A stretch of 44,363 nucleotides of DNA, from sequence record MW512570.1; one strand, written 5' to 3'. Positions 1-30,841 of this stretch are shown here, piece after piece. Origin of the DNA: Clostridioides phage CD1801. The notes beneath the pieces were generated by a model that had not been told where the DNA came from, made no database searches, and saw only the letters and a program-made list of their open reading frames with translations. The position numbers and the translations under genes are program-made. Positions within the stretch are counted from its first letter, which is position 1, and the number at the start of each line of letters is the position of its first letter.

Positions 1-1407
1 ATGGATAAAAAATTAATACAGTTAGAAGCTAAGAAGGAACTTGCAAGACGTGAGTTCTTTTATTTTTGCAATTTATTAGCACCAAACTTTTATAAAGAAG
101 ATAGAAAGTATTTAGTTGAAACCTGTAATAAGCTTCAAGATTTTTATTATTCAAATGATGAAGTTTTAATTATAAATATGCCACCTAGACATGGGAAAAG
201 TAGAAGTGCAAGTTTATTCGTAGAATGGATTTTAGGTAAAAATAAAAATGAAAAAATAATGACTGGTAGTTATAATGAGACTCTTTCAACTATGTTTTCA
301 AAGAATGTTAGAAATGCTATTCAAGAGGAAAAAGCTGATATAGACACTATTATTTATAGCGATATATTTCCTAACACAAAAATCAAACACGGTGATGGAG
401 CTATGAATTTATGGTCATTGGAAGGTGGTTATAATAATTATTTGGCGACCTCTCCGAGTGGTACAGCAACAGGCTTTGGATGTTCTCTGATGATTGTAGA
501 TGACTTAATTAAAAATGCAGAGGAAGCTTACAATGAGAATGTTCTTGAAAAACATTGGGATTGGTTTACTAATACTATGCTATCAAGGCTTGAAGAAGGC
601 GGAAAAATAATAATTATAATGACTAGATGGTCGAGCAAAGATTTAGCAGGTAGGGCACTAGAACATTACAAAGAAGAAGGCAAGAAAGTAAGACATATTA
701 ATATGAAAGCATTACAGGAAGATGGCAACATGCTTTGTGAAGAAGTATTATCTCTAAATAGTTATAAATCAAAAGTAAGAGCTATGGGCGAGGATATTGC
801 GAGTGCTAACTATCAACAAGAGCCTATTGACTTAAAAGGATGCTTGTACACTAGATTTAAGACGTATGACAAGCTTCCTGTTGATGAAAAAGGTAATCTA
901 CTATTTACATCTATTAAAGCTTATGTAGATACAGCAGACGAAGGAGCAGATTATTTATGTTCGATTGTGTATGGAGTATATAACAAAGAAGTATATGTAT
1001 TAGACGTTTTATATACAAAAGAGAGTATGGAAACAACAGAATATAAAACAGCTAAGATGTTCTATGAAAATGAAGTTAACAAAGCTGATATAGAAAGTAA
1101 TAGTGGTGGTAGAGCTTTTGCAAGAAATGTACAAAGAATATTGAAAGAAAAGTTTAAAAGTAATAAAACAACAATAAAGTGGTTTCATCAGTCTAAAAAT
1201 AAAAATGCTAGAATTTTATCTAATAGTAGTTGGGTAATGGAACATATATATTTTCCAATTAATTGGAGAGATAAGTGGACAGAGTTTTATAAGGCTATGG
1301 TGAGTTATCAAAGAGAAGGTAAGAACAAACATGATGATGCACCAGACGCTTTGACAGGGGTTGCAGAAAAGGCACTGAAAGGTCAAGGATTATCAGTATT
1401 TAAGTAA
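1..1407 (+). CDS. terL: Phage terminase large subunit.
   Basis: 468-aa ORF with a P-loop-like NMPPRHGKS motif near the N-terminus. It sits immediately downstream of the small terminase (by circular continuity) and upstream of the portal gene. Confidence 0.8.
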   Translation: MDKKLIQLEAKKELARREFFYFCNLLAPNFYKEDRKYLVETCNKLQDFYYSNDEVLIINMPPRHGKSRSASLFVEWILGKNKNEKIMTGSYNETLSTMFSKNVRNAIQEEKADIDTIIYSDIFPNTKIKHGDGAMNLWSLEGGYNNYLATSPSGTATGFGCSLMIVDDLIKNAEEAYNENVLEKHWDWFTNTMLSRLEEGGKIIIIMTRWSSKDLAGRALEHYKEEGKKVRHINMKALQEDGNMLCEEVLSLNSYKSKVRAMGEDIASANYQQEPIDLKGCLYTRFKTYDKLPVDEKGNLLFTSIKAYVDTADEGADYLCSIVYGVYNKEVYVLDVLYTKESMETTEYKTAKMFYENEVNKADIESNSGGRAFARNVQRILKEKFKSNKTTIKWFHQSKNKNARILSNSSWVMEHIYFPINWRDKWTEFYKAMVSYQREGKNKHDDAPDALTGVAEKALKGQGLSVFK

Positions 1408-1435
1408 TAATTTAAGTAATATAGGTGGTGGTGAT

Positions 1436-2335
1436 GTGGAGTTAGAAAAAATAAGAGCAATAATAAGTGCTGATATAGCTAGAAGACAAGAGATATTACA
1501 AGCTAAATCATACTATTATAATGAAAATGATATATTGAAAAAGGGTGTAGTTGTTCAAAATAGAGACGAAAATCCTCTGCGAAATGCTGACAATAGAATC
1601 AGTCATAACTTTCATGAGATATTAGTAGATGAAAAAGCTTCTTATATGTTTACTTATCCAGTTTTATTCGACATTGACAATAACAAGGAATTGAATGAGA
1701 AGGTAACAGATGTTCTAGGGAATGAGTTCACTAGAAAAGCTAAGAATTTAGCAATAGAAGCGTCGAATTGTGGTACTGCGTGGCTTCATTACTGGATAGA
1801 TGAAGAATATAGTGGGGAACAGGTAACTAATCAAACATTTAAATATGGTGTAGTCAATACAGAGGAAATTATTCCTATATATCGAAATGGTATTGAAAGA
1901 GAGCTAGAAGCTGTAATAAGATATTATATTCAGCTAGAGGATGTAAAAGGTCAAATACAAAAGCAGGCATATACTTATGTTGAATTTTGGACAGACAAAA
2001 TATTAGATAAATATAAATTCTTTGGAGTATCATGCTATGGTTCTCAAATCGAGCATATAACAATACTACACAGGTTTAATTCAGTTCCTTTTATTGAATT
2101 TGCTAACAACATAAAAAAACAAAGTGACTTATCAAAATATAAATCAGTGTTGGATTTATACGATAAAATAATGAGTGGGTTTGCAAATGATTTAGAGGAT
2201 ATACAGCAAATAATATACATCTTAGAAAATTATGGTGGAGAGGATACAGCACAATTTTTAAATGAATTAAAGAGATACAAGGCAATAAAAACAGAAACAG
2301 ATAGTGAAGGAGATAGTGGTGGTCTTAAAACTTAA
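1436..2335 (+). CDS. Portal protein (SPP1 gp6-like), 5' part. The reading frame is interrupted by the insertion at ~2326-3097.
   Basis: Portal-like N-terminal sequence directly after terL. A 299-aa ORF is too short for a portal. The portal-like C-terminal part resumes in the ORF at 3096-3458. Confidence 0.65.
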   Translation: MELEKIRAIISADIARRQEILQAKSYYYNENDILKKGVVVQNRDENPLRNADNRISHNFHEILVDEKASYMFTYPVLFDIDNNKELNEKVTDVLGNEFTRKAKNLAIEASNCGTAWLHYWIDEEYSGEQVTNQTFKYGVVNTEEIIPIYRNGIERELEAVIRYYIQLEDVKGQIQKQAYTYVEFWTDKILDKYKFFGVSCYGSQIEHITILHRFNSVPFIEFANNIKKQSDLSKYKSVLDLYDKIMSGFANDLEDIQQIIYILENYGGEDTAQFLNELKRYKAIKTETDSEGDSGGLKT

Positions 2336-3097
2336 ATCACTATACAGAAGCTCGAAAAATAATACTTGAAATCTTGAAAAAACAAATATATGAAAGTGGT
2401 CAAGGGTTGCAACAGGATACTGAAAACTTTGGTAACGCCTCGGGTAAAAATGCCATGCCCCCTATGTTAGAAATAGCATAGTGAAAATCGGGTTAAAATT
2501 GGAAATCTTAATTTTGCGTTAATAGAATTTATCGAAAAACACCAGTTTTAGTGCTATAATATAAATATATTATTCATTAAAGAGGTGTTGAAATTGAAAA
2601 TAGAGGGAACTAGATTTAAATTACATGATAAAGAAATAAGTAGACTAAAAGAATTAAAATTAAATGGTTATAAATTAATATCTAGTATGGGGATATAAAA
2701 ACTATATAGGTTGAGAAACGAGCCTAATACTAACGTTAATGGATACAAAGGTATCTTTGTTAGTAAAAGTCTTAAAGAATAATAATTAGTGTTAATATGT
2801 TGTAATTTATAGATTATTTTGTAAATGAGAGTATTAAAGAAAATTATTTAGTATTTAAGAAACCAACGTGTTTTAACCGTTGGAGTTTCAGAAACGCAAA
2901 AAAAGACAATCAATTACCAATCCTAGTGAGAAATCATAGGAAGGTTTAACGACTAGATAAAGTAAGCTAAGTAATTAAGACCGAAAGGTCTTTTTTATAT
3001 GCAGAAATATCCACGAAATCCGAAGCCTAAACAAGTAAAGTTGTAGGTTATGAGATAGTCTGAACTTATAGGAAACTATAAGAGGTAGAGGATAAAG
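2326..3097 (+). mobile_element. Candidate ORF-less group I self-splicing intron interrupting the portal gene. Boundaries are approximate.
   Basis: ~770 nt with no long ORF between the two portal reading-frame segments. An R-like P7 5' element GGTTTAACGACTAGAT lies at 2943-2958 and an S-like element GAGATAGTCTGAAC at 3052-3065. A P9-like hairpin with a GAAA loop lies at 3064-3084. A U at 2325 and G at 3097 give an intron length of 1 mod 3 that keeps the exons in frame. The alternative pairs 2332 with 3107 and 2332 with 3119 do the same. Confidence 0.5.
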
Positions 3098-3458
3098 AGC
3101 CTTTACGATAACAATTAAGGTGGCACTTAAATTTTTTTATAGAAAGCTAGAATTAAAGTCTGGATTACTTGAAACCGAGTTTAGAACCTCTTTTGATAAG
3201 CTGATTAAGGCTATACTATATTTTTTAGGAATTACAGACTATAAAAAGATACAACAAACATATACACGCAATATGATGTCAAATGATTTGGAGGATGCAG
3301 ATATAGCAACTAAGTCCGTTGGTATAATACCAATTAAAATTATTTTAAGGCACCATCCTTGGGTTGATGATGTTGAAGAAGCTGAAAGACTTTATTTAGA
3401 AGAAAAGAAAATACAAGCTTCAAAAGTATCTGATGATTATAATAACTTTGCTGAATAG
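3096..3458 (+). CDS. Portal protein, 3' part (exon 2).
   Basis: The frame is open from 3096 after an in-frame TAA at 3093. The ORF track starts it at a GTG at 3120. The C-terminal portal-like acidic tail precedes the gp7-like gene. Confidence 0.55.
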   Translation, partial: RAFTITIKVALKFFYRKLELKSGLLETEFRTSFDKLIKAILYFLGITDYKKIQQTYTRNMMSNDLEDADIATKSVGIIPIKIILRHHPWVDDVEEAERLYLEEKKIQASKVSDDYNNFAE

Positions 3459-3470
3459 AGGTGAAGTTAT

Positions 3471-4511
3471 TTGAATAATAATATTGAGTACTGGGAAGAA
3501 AGAGAAAAGCAAAGATTAAATGCAAGATTGAAAGATGAAAAAGAGGTATTAAAAGAACTAGATAAACAATATAAAATCGCAATGAAAAATATAGAGAAAG
3601 AAATTGCTAATTTATTTTATAAATATGCTAAACAGAATAAACTAACATATGCAGAAACACAAAAAAATTTAACTAACAATGAGTTTAAGGTATGGCGTAT
3701 GGATATTAAGCAATATATTAAGTTAATAGAACAAACAAATGATGAAAGATTACTATTAGAACTTAATACATTAGCTATGAAGAGTAGAATAAATAGATTA
3801 GAAGAATTATTCTATCAAATATCTAAAGAGATATATAATACATTTGACATTCAAAATAATAGAGTAGAAAAGTTATTAGAGGAATCTGTGAAAGATAGTT
3901 ACTATAAAAGTATATATGAAACTCAAAAGTTTGTAGGAGTTGGAACTAGCTTTAGTAAGCTTGATAAAGAAACTCTAAAGGACATAATTACATATCCTTG
4001 GAGTGGCAAAAATTTTTCTCAAAGGATATGGAAAAACAGAGATTTATTAAGTGAAGTTATCAAGGAAGAAATTACTCAAATGGTTATAAGAGGAGAAAGT
4101 TTGAAAAAGATTGCTAATAGAGTATCGGAAAAAATGGATTCTAGTTATGAAAATGCAATAAGATTAGTACAAACGGAACATTCTCATTTTATGTCAGAAG
4201 CTGATAAAAAAGCATATGAAAGTCAAGGAGTAGATAAATATCAATTCTTAGCAACGTTACAGGATAATACTTGTAAAAGATGTAGAAATTTAGATATGAA
4301 AGTATATTTAGTTAAAGAAGCTAAAGAAGGAGAAAATTATCCTCCGATACATCCAAGATGTCGCTGTACAACTATCCCTTATTTTAAACACGAAAAAGGA
4401 GAAACGAGAACAGCACGACTGCCAAAAGGTAAAACCTATGAAGTTTCAGCAAACTTGACTTATAATGAATGGTACAAGGAACATGTAATAAAAAATATAG
4501 AAGTTGTATAG
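3471..4511 (+). CDS. Head morphogenesis protein (SPP1 gp7 / Mu F family).
   Basis: The C-terminal motif CKRCRNL...HPRCRCT is typical of gp7/F-like minor head proteins. It follows the portal gene. Confidence 0.7.
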   Translation: MNNNIEYWEEREKQRLNARLKDEKEVLKELDKQYKIAMKNIEKEIANLFYKYAKQNKLTYAETQKNLTNNEFKVWRMDIKQYIKLIEQTNDERLLLELNTLAMKSRINRLEELFYQISKEIYNTFDIQNNRVEKLLEESVKDSYYKSIYETQKFVGVGTSFSKLDKETLKDIITYPWSGKNFSQRIWKNRDLLSEVIKEEITQMVIRGESLKKIANRVSEKMDSSYENAIRLVQTEHSHFMSEADKKAYESQGVDKYQFLATLQDNTCKRCRNLDMKVYLVKEAKEGENYPPIHPRCRCTTIPYFKHEKGETRTARLPKGKTYEVSANLTYNEWYKEHVIKNIEVV

Positions 4512-29482: not shown

Positions 29483-30841
29483 TTATATAAAATTAATAGT
29501 GATGTTTTTGTTATTATCTATTTCTATATAATCTATTATAGATAACCAAAAACGTCTGCGTTCAACCCTGCTTAAATCACTATACATCTCATTAATATCA
29601 ATATCTAAGAATTTTTTTATATGTGATGTATCAATAATTTGACTCTCCTGTTCTTCAGTTATATTATCTAGTTGAGATTGTAATTTTTCATAATCTTTTC
29701 TATAAGTCTCTTTATCAATCAAATCCTCTAAATATAAATCTTTGATTTTATCTAATTTTTTCATGATTTTCTTCTTTTCATCTTTTTTGTTAGATTTCTT
29801 ATTTCGTCTGATTTTTTCATTTTGTGCTTCTAATTTCACCATATGTTTATGTAATTGTGGTTTTAAGTTAGTCAAAAGGTAGTTTTCTATATGTTTTTCA
29901 TTATGAGTTACATTGTGTACACAGTTTTTATTTAGATAGAATGTAGAACATCTATAAGATAAATAAAGTTTTTCTCCAACATTACTAGAATTACCCTTTA
30001 ATGTATAACCACACTCCTTACATTTTAAAAGACCAGAAAAAATATGATAATGTATGTTTTTATTAGGAGTAGTTTTTTTATTTTTTTCTAATATTCTTTG
30101 GATTTGTTTAAATTGTTTTTTTGATATAATAGGTTCACAATAATCTTCAACATAAAATCCTCGTTTATTATAGATTCCTATATAAAGTTCATTTCTTAGT
30201 ATATTCTTTATTTTATTATAACTGTATAATTCGCCATGAAGATTATTAATTGTTTCTATTAAAGTCCTAACAGAACCTGATTTCTCGTATTCGTCAAATA
30301 TAGCTTTAACTATATATTTTTTTTCTTTATCAATAACTAGATGCTTATTTTCTATTTTGTAACCTATGGGAATTGTACCACTTATAACTTCTTTACGTCT
30401 CAATTTATCCTGAAAAACAAATTTTATTCTTTCAGATGTTTGAGCTGCTTCATTTTCTGCTACAGATAGCATAATGTTTATATGTAATCTACCAGCAGCA
30501 GTGCTAGAATCGTAGTTTTCTAAAATGGTTTTCCAATCACACTTATGTTTTTCCAAGGTTTCCATTATTTTATAATAGTTTTTAACGCCACGACTTAGTC
30601 TATCAATTTTAGTCATTAAAACTAGGTCTACTTTATCTTTTTCCACATCTCTTAATAATCGTTGTAAGTTAGGTCTTTTTAAATTAGTTGCAGAGCAACC
30701 TTCATCAATGTATTTACCAACTATGTTAAAATCATTCTCTTTAGAGTACTGTTCTAAAGCCTCTATTTGTGTCCTTATGCTATCTCCATTTAAAGCTTGT
30801 TCTTCTGTACTAACACGTATATAAAGTGCTACTCTTAACAT
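29483..30841 (-). CDS. int: Large serine recombinase (integrase).
   Basis: N-terminal resolvase motif ALYIRVSTEEQ...GDSIRTQ, a recombinase domain and a Cys-rich zinc-ribbon region. 452 aa. Confidence 0.85.
   Translation of the reverse strand: MLRVALYIRVSTEEQALNGDSIRTQIEALEQYSKENDFNIVGKYIDEGCSATNLKRPNLQRLLRDVEKDKVDLVLMTKIDRLSRGVKNYYKIMETLEKHKCDWKTILENYDSSTAAGRLHINIMLSVAENEAAQTSERIKFVFQDKLRRKEVISGTIPIGYKIENKHLVIDKEKKYIVKAIFDEYEKSGSVRTLIETINNLHGELYSYNKIKNILRNELYIGIYNKRGFYVEDYCEPIISKKQFKQIQRILEKNKKTTPNKNIHYHIFSGLLKCKECGYTLKGNSSNVGEKLYLSYRCSTFYLNKNCVHNVTHNEKHIENYLLTNLKPQLHKHMVKLEAQNEKIRRNKKSNKKDEKKKIMKKLDKIKDLYLEDLIDKETYRKDYEKLQSQLDNITEEQESQIIDTSHIKKFLDIDINEMYSDLSRVERRRFWLSIIDYIEIDNNKNITINFI

Follow-up and report, generated by a model that had tools for sequence, protein, structure and literature searches.

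A predicted group I intron with a nested IS200/IS605 relic in the portal gene of Clostridioides phage CD1801

The portal gene and its interruption

We analyzed a stretch of 44,363 nucleotides (nt) from Clostridioides phage CD1801 (MW512570.1), referred to here as the window, in which the portal gene is interrupted by a predicted group I intron that itself holds a fragment of an insertion sequence (IS). The window opens with the terminase large-subunit gene (1-1407), and an SPP1 Gp6-type portal gene (PF05133) comes next; all features are on the plus strand unless marked otherwise. The portal gene is read in three pieces and three frames. The first piece (1436-2335) encodes 299 amino acids and ends at a TAA at 2333-2335. 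The second (2329-2445) lies in another frame, encodes NLNHYTEARKIILEILKKQIYESGQGLQQDTENFGNASG and covers PF05133 profile positions 275-311, while the third (3120-3458), in the third frame, runs from VALKFFYRKLELK... to the stop codon and covers profile positions 311-414. The first two pieces make up the SPP1 Gp6-like exon 1 (1436-2445), which occupies two frames owing to a lesion at 2333-2342, and the third piece is exon 2. Pfam matched PF05133 to exon 1 with E values of 7e-70 (1436-2332) and 1e-4 (2329-2475) and to exon 2 with an E value of 3e-24.

To place the boundaries of the interruption, we relied on the uninterrupted portal gene of phage phiCDHM19. The alignment runs through exon 1 at ~90% nucleotide identity up to 2438 and resumes at 3120, with 94% identity in exon 2. 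The remaining seven bases of the intronless allele (GCA AGT GGT/GTA GCA) fix the junction at UCG GGU2445 / G3120UG GCA, so that exon 1 ends in ...UCG GGU with U2445 as its final base. The inserted 674 nt (2446-3119, bounded by U2445/A2446 and G3119/G3120) start after this U and end in a terminal G, G3119. The exon bases that flank them differ from the intronless allele exactly so that helices P1 and P10, described below, become perfect. The predicted ligated-exon junction reads ...GCCUCGGGU/GUGGCACUU (UCGGGU/GUGGCA). When the intron was excised in silico from the relative L004, we obtained a portal of 451 amino acids that aligned without gaps to the 451-amino-acid phiCDHM19 portal, with 431 of 451 residues identical (95.6%). 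The predicted element has both the terminal guanosine and the frame-restoring excision of a group I intron. An interruption of the portal gene by a group I intron had been the core of the original prediction, and it is borne out by the insertion relative to phiCDHM19, the fold and the covariation. The boundaries given then, 2326-3097 (~770 nt), were wrong; the phiCDHM19 alignment and the P1 and P10 pairings place the intron at 2446-3119.

The stop after 299 amino acids is a separate matter. We compared the window with three public relatives (L004-L006) over 1307-3599, and 2332-2342 was the only place where it differed from them. There the relatives, like phage phiCDHM19, have ACT-ATGCAAATAGAGATACC-TACAG, and the window has ACT-TAAATCACTA-TACAG. 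The private lesion (2333-2342) puts 10 nt in place of 17, 7 nt fewer in all, and it both makes the TAA at 2333-2335 and frameshifts exon 1. In the relatives' contigs that were read, L004-L006 included, the upstream portal open reading frame (ORF) is uninterrupted, has 350 amino acids and runs into the intron. It had been proposed that the reading frame stops after 299 amino acids and resumes downstream because of the intron. The stop and the resumption (at 3120) are both there, but the stop is no sign of a splice site and is not the intron's doing. As sequenced, the portal gene is broken by two separate things, a small lesion and a predicted intron. Because of the frameshift and the stop at 2333, the portal is truncated at 299 amino acids whatever splicing does, and the copy in the window, as sequenced, is a pseudogene independently of the intron. 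We found no record of the 299-amino-acid product in 153 billion gene positions.

The lesion bases with their flanks (CTTAAATCACTATACA, 2331-2346) are an exact 16-nt copy of 29571-29586, which sits within a large serine recombinase gene ~27 kb from the portal. The lesion thus resembles a templated micro-conversion, or else a chimera made in assembly. The prophage is probably defective, or else the sequence is faulty at the lesion. The lesion also creates a 7-bp inverted repeat (ATAGTGA 2301-2307 / TCACTAT 2337-2343). We discounted a programmed -1 frameshift at 2327-2335, since the site has no slippery heptamer and the relatives simply do not have the lesion.

Outside the window, the same interruption is common. 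An exact match to the exon 2 product (112 amino acids) was found in 121 blocks of public assemblies, and in every case the same gap of 674 nt preceded it. The prophage family that carries this split portal is widespread in public assemblies of the C. difficile type. Its portal is called as two ORFs (350 and 112 amino acids), and recognition of the intron restores a single portal of 451 amino acids.

The ribozyme fold and its support

The predicted intron folds into a group I core from end to end. An internal guide sequence, UGCCAU/GCCC (2451-2460), sets P1 and P10 side by side. In P1, GCCC (2457-2460) pairs with GGGU at the end of exon 1 (2442-2445) and includes the U·G pair, and in P10, UGCCAU (2451-2456) pairs with GUGGCA at the start of exon 2 (3120-3125). 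Exon 1 ending in U, the U·G wobble in P1 and a P10 formed by the adjacent guide bases are all as in group I introns. P2 (2462-2469/2474-2481) is a hairpin with a GAAA loop. P3 joins CGGGUU (2489-2494) to AAUCCG (3017-3022), P4 joins AAUUGG (2497-2502) to UCAAUU (2910-2915), and P5 is formed by UCUU-UUUUGCGU (2506-2519) and ACGCAAAA-AAGA (2894-2906). P6/P6a, again with a GAAA loop, spans 2917-2944. P7, the guanosine-binding helix of the group I core, consists of GACUA (2951-2955) and UAGUC (3056-3060); its strands had been foreseen within GGTTTAACGACTAGAT (2943-2958) and GAGATAGTCTGAAC (3052-3065) and are present there. P7.1 (AAGACC-GAAA-GGUCUU, 2977-2992) lies between P7 and P3', and P8 is formed by AGCCUAAAC and GUUGUAGGUU (3024-3049). 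P9 (3065-3082), the GAAA-looped hairpin noticed earlier, is likewise present, and P9.1 (GUAGAGG/CCUUUAC) follows at 3085-3106. The core helices P3-P8, which in group I introns include the P3/P7 pseudoknot and the R/S elements that make up P7, stand in canonical order. The ribozyme is split into a 5' half (2462-2519) and a 3' half (2894-3119). The former is supported by covariation of helices 1-4, the minimum free energy (MFE) fold and homology to introns of Streptococcus thermophilus, Streptococcus suis and IMG/VR contigs, and the latter by identity to relatives, per-helix covariation and the Rfam alignment.

We measured covariation over 67 pairs in an alignment of 11 related phage introns from which the P5 inserts had been trimmed. 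The proportion of cells that were paired was 88.8%, against 70.9% in shuffled alignments and 30-50% when the partner was slid. Forty-four pairs had changed on both sides, compared with 23 in the shuffles. The covariation score was 0.487 versus 0.159 for shuffled alignments, and none of 500 shuffles scored as high. Double changes were seen in P2, P3, P4, P6a, P7.1, P8, P9 and P9.1. P10 tracks a differing exon 2 in 7 of the 11 introns, and the variant pairings are GUAG/CUAU, GAACA/UGUUU, AGCUAU/AUAGUU, CAAUG/UAUUG, UUGUG/CACAA and GGAUGG/CCAUUU. An unconstrained MFE fold of the insert-trimmed intron gave the same helices, with a z score of -4.6.

The Rfam group I model had been named as the check on the original prediction, with the lack of a group I match counting against it, and this check proved ambiguous here. 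In E-value mode on 1 kb, RF00028 aligned over its full model (1-253) to 2825-3082 at 23.6 bits (E=0.0014), which is below the gathering score. That score is a detection threshold and sets no structural criterion, and both the 373-nt P5 insert and the IA-type extra helices fall outside the model. At an E value of 0.1 or less, Rfam gave no match on the phiCD211 and S. thermophilus loci either, a result that is uninformative, as the filters are too strict on 11 kb. The predicted element thus has every structural feature of a group I intron that we checked and falls short only of the Rfam score threshold. An extra structured region between P7 and P3' is a hallmark of subgroup IA, and by analogy we would assign the intron to this subgroup. 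The P7.1 hairpin and the following UUUUUUAU (a U-run to ~3000) also score as an intrinsic terminator. This terminator-like sequence lies inside the portal pre-mRNA, downstream of the endonuclease cassette described below, and relatives show covariation in its hairpin.

By BLAST, the 3' 220 nt of the intron have 75-77% identity to the terL introns of S. thermophilus phages. Weaker matches were to introns in the portal gene of S. suis phiJH1301-1 and in tape-measure genes of Lactobacillus delbrueckii JCL1032, L. salivarius and C. perfringens, and many phages of Bacillus, Staphylococcus, Listeria and Clostridioides match the most conserved 50-90 nt of the 3' end. The 5' part contains GGGUUAAAAUUGGAA, the P3/P4/P5 5' motif common to the family, and a scan with this motif found 28 further members. 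The nearest members are L079 (ORF-less, from IMG/VR), with 94% identity over the 3' half, L016 (the Bacillota metagenome-assembled genome contig JAEZVF010000031), with 90%, and L055, with 88%.

The P5 loop and other features of the window

The P5 loop holds a 373-nt insert (about 2520-2893) at the position where relatives carry homing-endonuclease genes. Its left part (2520-2611) consists of GTTAATAGAATT, a promoter, a Shine-Dalgarno (SD) sequence, a start and the first codons, (M)KLKI. The promoter has a TG-extended -10 element, TGCTATAAT, and matched the promoter scan at 2532-2560 (10/12). An internal promoter-like sequence had been noticed before; we confirm it, as a leftover of an endonuclease cassette. 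The SD sequence AGAGGTG (2580-2586) precedes possible starts at GTG 2585 and TTG 2594. The genes in relatives are preceded by an extended -10 promoter and an SD sequence as well. L055 has GTTAATAGAATT, TGTTATAAT and an SD sequence upstream of a GIY-YIG gene in the same place, and L016 has GTGCTATAAT and an SD sequence, also in the same place, upstream of a 242-amino-acid ORF that has no Pfam match. Both L055 and L057 carry GIY-YIG-type genes in the P5 loop. The KLKI start region in the window is comparable to the MNLKIY start of the S. thermophilus endonuclease. From this arrangement we identify 2520-2611 as the putative stump of the intron's own homing-endonuclease cassette. The start is fused to the last ~28 codons of tnpB in a chimeric relic ORF of 37 amino acids (2585-2698; FKLHDKEISRLKELKLNGYKLISSMGI*). 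This is the longest ORF inside the intron, and Pfam gave no match to it. The original prediction had taken a 34-amino-acid ORF with an SD sequence here for a degenerate homing endonuclease. The ORF is there (2585/2594-2698) and its start region does come from an endonuclease gene, but the last 28 codons are the C terminus of tnpB. Where relatives encode a GIY-YIG or other endonuclease of 233-242 amino acids, the window has no intact endonuclease.

The right part of the insert (2612-2891) is a relic of an IS200/IS605-family element made up of the 3' end of tnpB (to 2698), a structured 3' region and the right end. Its identity is 85.5% to the IS 3' end in phiCD211, phiCDIF1296T and AR1086-1, 84% to the complete TnpA+TnpB element of the Logan contig L128 and 76% to ISCbt-type OrfB copies of C. 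botulinum phage c-st. A tblastn search with phiCD211 TnpB matched residues 455-479 (25 amino acids) to 2621-2695 with 92% identity. By its C terminus, the closest TnpB is P0003 of the L128 element, a contig that ends at the right end; the last ~28 codons are identical to the P0003 C terminus (...ILHDKEISRLKELKLNGYKLISSMGI) but for one deleted residue. The whole NCBIfam guided_TnpB profile aligns to ORF B of phiCD211, with an E value of 1.4e-14, below the curated cutoff. NCBI names the cluster of this ORF B an RNA-guided endonuclease TnpB family protein, and its neighbor is a Y1_Tnp fragment. Pfam on this ORF B returned only a subthreshold HTH_OrfB_IS605 match, and a PDB sequence search returned nothing.

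The ~190 nt after the tnpB stop codon have a conserved fold of 72 pairs, 20 of which show compensatory changes among three sequences, and all its helices are intact in the window. The region 3' of tnpB is where IS200/IS605 elements encode the omega-RNA scaffold (bioRxiv 10.1101/2023.11.20.567912), and by position the structured region of the relic may be an omega-RNA-type scaffold. It is closed by a right-end hairpin, CCAACG/CGTTGG (2863-2868/2878-2883), and a terminal TCAG (2888-2891), which show compensatory changes relative to phiCD211, c-st and L128. Directly after the right end comes the 3' strand of P5, the strand in which the stop codon of the relatives' endonuclease falls. We found no left-end hairpin (AAAGCCNACTCCTT..GGNGTNGGATG), tnpA or tnpB body anywhere in the window. 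As judged from its sequence, the relic is a 3' fragment and no complete IS200/IS605 element. Earlier it had been stated that the intron has no transposase part. This is half right, in that there is no transposase or tnpA, yet the 3' end of tnpB and the right end are present.

The full-length elements supplied one further observation. Their left ends follow GATTAC, in phiCD211 at GGGATTAC/AGAATAGTGCGG (L002 1190-1215) and in L128 at CTGATTAC/GTGCGG (145-175). These two sites suggest that the target motif of this IS subgroup is of a TTAC type rather than the TTGAT of CdiIStrons.

The two parts of the insert would be explained by the following history. The intron comes from a family that is spread over Firmicutes phages and interrupts terL, portal and tape-measure genes; members that are mobile carry a GIY-YIG or other endonuclease gene, with a promoter of its own, in the P5 terminal loop. 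A TnpA/TnpB element of the IS200/IS605 family would have inserted at the 3' edge of this gene. A single later deletion, beginning at the first codons of the endonuclease and reaching tnpB codon -28, would account for the loss of the endonuclease body together with the IS left end, tnpA and almost all of tnpB. It would have left the stump (promoter, SD sequence and start) joined to the final 28 codons of tnpB, and after these the omega-RNA-type scaffold and the right end. The intron would now be immobile, a purely splicing element. If so, it records how a TnpB-type IS invaded and destroyed a homing-endonuclease cassette, which bears on how IStrons, the known chimeras of introns and ISs, arise. 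It would be a dead end and no working new system. A search of viral contigs for the intron+IS junction pattern gave 0 matches, and no record in phage and plasmid BLAST searches covered at least 80% of the intron+IS chimera. One JGI contig (L127, Ga0126343_10029675) matched, at 2861-2882, 28 of the 29 nt where the IS right end meets P5 (TTTCAGAAACGCAAAAAAAGACAA); its sequence is otherwise unrelated, and we judged the match to be chance.

It is conceivable, though we think it unlikely, that the scaffold of the nested fragment binds or responds to TnpB supplied in trans and so modulates portal splicing. Its would-be guide is the 3' strand of P5/P4 of the intron, AAACGCAAAAAAAGACAAUC. TnpB might come from resident IS605 or IStron copies or from a co-resident phage of the phiCD211 type. 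By binding or processing portal pre-mRNA, it could throttle the splicing of this essential late gene, or it could cleave intron alleles free of the IS. Were this true, it would amount to an IStron-like conflict between intron and guide RNA with the IS in P5, and to a second independent route to intron-transposon chimeras. By every computational test that we applied, the nested TnpB relic appears inactive.

Elsewhere in the window, we noted two features on the minus strand. A large serine recombinase gene (29483-30841), the one that holds the 16-nt copy of the lesion, encodes 452 amino acids with Resolvase, Recombinase and Zn_ribbon_recom domains. The protein was found exactly, unchanged, in 2160 blocks of public assemblies, where its gene adjoins one for a host solute-binding protein. 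The window has this gene in mid-genome, after ~29 kb that start with terminase and portal, and so seems to follow the circular order of a phage and not that of a prophage. A full-length cyclic di-GMP-I riboswitch aptamer (RF01051, 29081-29176, 69.1 bits, E=1.3e-11) lies a short way past the 3' end of the integrase gene. It was the only match in the whole-window Rfam search at threshold, which reported no intron.

Alternative readings and known systems

Taken together, we consider it highly probable that 2446-3119 is an IA-like group I intron in the portal gene of a phiCD119/phiCDHM19-like Clostridioides phage or prophage, with its P5 endonuclease cassette replaced by an IS relic. In the late transcript, the guide UGCCAU/GCCC would align GGGU of exon 1 with GUGGCA of exon 2, the P3-P9 core would bind guanosine, and two transesterifications would join ...UCG GGU to GUG GCA.... 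This would restore the conserved portal motif NFGNASG/VALKF. Comparison establishes the fold and the exact junction; catalysis itself is inferred. Several points weigh against this interpretation. P7 and the short base of P6 (CC/GG) are invariant and so uninformative, and the base of P5, only 57% paired in the trimmed alignment, is poorly supported. Rfam at the gathering threshold (50 bits) reported no group I match in the whole window. The lesion could be an assembly or sequencing artifact and no real mutation. The origin of the left 90 nt of the insert is not unique, because 39 nt of them weakly resemble the 3' part of the L016 endonuclease coding sequence. That the IS inserted before the deletion took place is deduced from one end state, and we found no full-length intermediate in searches of phages, plasmids, viral contigs, species-representative genomes (one genome per species) and JGI metagenomes.

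It is also necessary to consider that the portal is not spliced at all. In that case it would be made as two polypeptides or be a dead pseudogene in a decaying prophage, and the ribozyme would be a fossil. Consistent with this are the truncation of the portal at 2333 regardless of splicing, the loss of the endonuclease from an intron that now carries junk, and the missing Rfam match at threshold. However, the split portal has intact exons and no frameshift in the 121 blocks of public assemblies, which are identical over 2.3 kb. All helices, P1 and P10 included, are intact in the window, and the flanking exon bases are tuned to the guide. Furthermore, exon 2 has neither an SD sequence nor an ATG context of its own, apart from a GTG made by the junction codon. 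We therefore regard the absence of splicing as very unlikely.

A different possibility is that the element is a miniature, ORF-less IStron whose transposase genes have been deleted, as in ORF-less BcISt1 or truncated CdISt1. In its favor, it contains the 3' end of tnpB, an omega-RNA-type scaffold and an IS605 right end in TCAG, and C. difficile carries IS605-type IStrons of which ORF-less variants are known (PMC4227781; bioRxiv 10.1101/2023.11.20.567912). An IStron carries its IS downstream of P9 and has its splice sites at the transposon ends; it inserts after TTGAT, ATTAT or TTTAT, and its 3' terminus is TCAG, as it is in group A IStron/IS605 3' ends (PMC4227781). Here, the relic is enclosed in the loop of P5, and 228 nt that include the ribozyme core separate its right end (2891) from the 3' splice site. 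On its 5' side the element has UCGGGU (5' flank CCUCGGGU) and none of those pentamers, and its 3' end is AAUUAAG, so that it ends in UUAAG, not TCAG; the only TCAG is that of the internal relic. It keeps the last ~28 codons of ORF B and no ORF A, and such truncation is accepted in the IStron family, but this architecture is not. The ribozyme is homologous to endonuclease-type phage introns without any IS, and the element occupies one fixed site in a conserved portal motif, with no second copy in the window. That it is an IStron of this kind is thus highly improbable; on sequence grounds it is a member of a known phage group I intron family and no canonical IStron. An intron at 2326-3097 with a degenerate homing endonuclease for its small ORF is scarcely credible, for although the sites proposed for it, U2325 and G3097, do keep the frame into VALKFF by arithmetic, the portal ORF does stop at 2333 and the core motifs do fall within the span, no guide pairs with those exon ends (UGCCAU/GCCC pairs perfectly with 2442-2445 and 3120-3125), 2329-2445 encodes conserved portal in phiCDHM19 and PF05133, 39 conserved residues would be deleted and seven foreign ones (AFTITIK) added, a 3' splice site at 3097 would cut the covarying P9.1, and the relatives have no stop at 2333.

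Phage structural genes are well known to harbor group I introns. The whole element is in no INPHARED phage record and nowhere in the literature that we searched, and so the intron appears to be undescribed, though it is common in public C. difficile-type assemblies. Its closest described counterparts are the terL introns of S. thermophilus Brussowvirus phages (CHPC1109, NC_071062; phage 2972). The ribozymes are homologous in both halves, and the streptococcal mobility gene, preceded by an internal promoter and an SD sequence, occupies the P5 terminal loop, the same position as the relic in the window. They differ in host gene (terL and portal), in that the S. thermophilus intron has an intact GIY-YIG/NUMOD endonuclease of 236 amino acids where the window has a 373-nt relic, and in that the former has no P2 hairpin and no convincing P10, whereas the window has both. 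The same intron family is found in the same portal motif, NF.GN.SG/VA, in S. suis phiJH1301-1 (KX077891), L016 and L079. The S. suis portal is annotated as two coding sequences (intron at L008 1506-1803). L016 has exactly the site of the window (UCGGGU/.../GUAGCG), the S. suis site is 2 nt downstream and that of L079 is 9 codons upstream. Of these introns, L016 has the 242-amino-acid ORF and, unlike the window, none has IS-derived sequence; nor was any IS sequence found in the 28 family members identified by the P3-P4 motif. We observed that each of the three portal sites follows a GGGU or GGAU that matches the guide sequence. This hints that the choice of site may follow the guide sequence and not only the endonuclease.

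The tape-measure introns of JCL1032 (EU409559, where the coding sequence is a join), C. perfringens and L. salivarius share P6a, P7, P9, P9.1 and the GAAA loops with the window and supply most of the compensatory changes in P3 and P4. Their host gene, guide sequences and P3/P4 sequences differ from those of the window. Five IMG/VR contigs (L047, L068, L097, L050 and L082) have two tandem introns of this family in their tape-measure genes, and one of the copies in L068 holds a 319-amino-acid ORF. A single ribozyme lineage would thus have been retargeted to several terL, portal and tape-measure sites, with the guide tracking the exons and with some of the sites merely 2 nt or 9 codons apart.

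IStrons (CdISt1, BcISt1 and CboIStron) are chimeras of a group I intron with an IS200/IS605 or IS607 element. The window shares with them a group I ribozyme combined with IS605-family tnpB, omega-RNA-type and right-end sequence. In both, the sequence that flanks the IS guide is part of the intron, so that guide-RNA folding and intron folding could compete. Degenerate, ORF-truncated copies are common among IStrons too, which have many copies per genome and are mobile by transposition. The phiCD211/phiCDIF1296T IS, roughly 2.1 kb with a TnpA fragment and a 479-amino-acid TnpB-family protein, is represented in the window by only its last ~280 nt. Unlike an IStron, the relic in the window is nested in P5, has no left end and is present as a single copy at a homing-type site, and the ribozyme around it belongs to the phage endonuclease-intron lineage.

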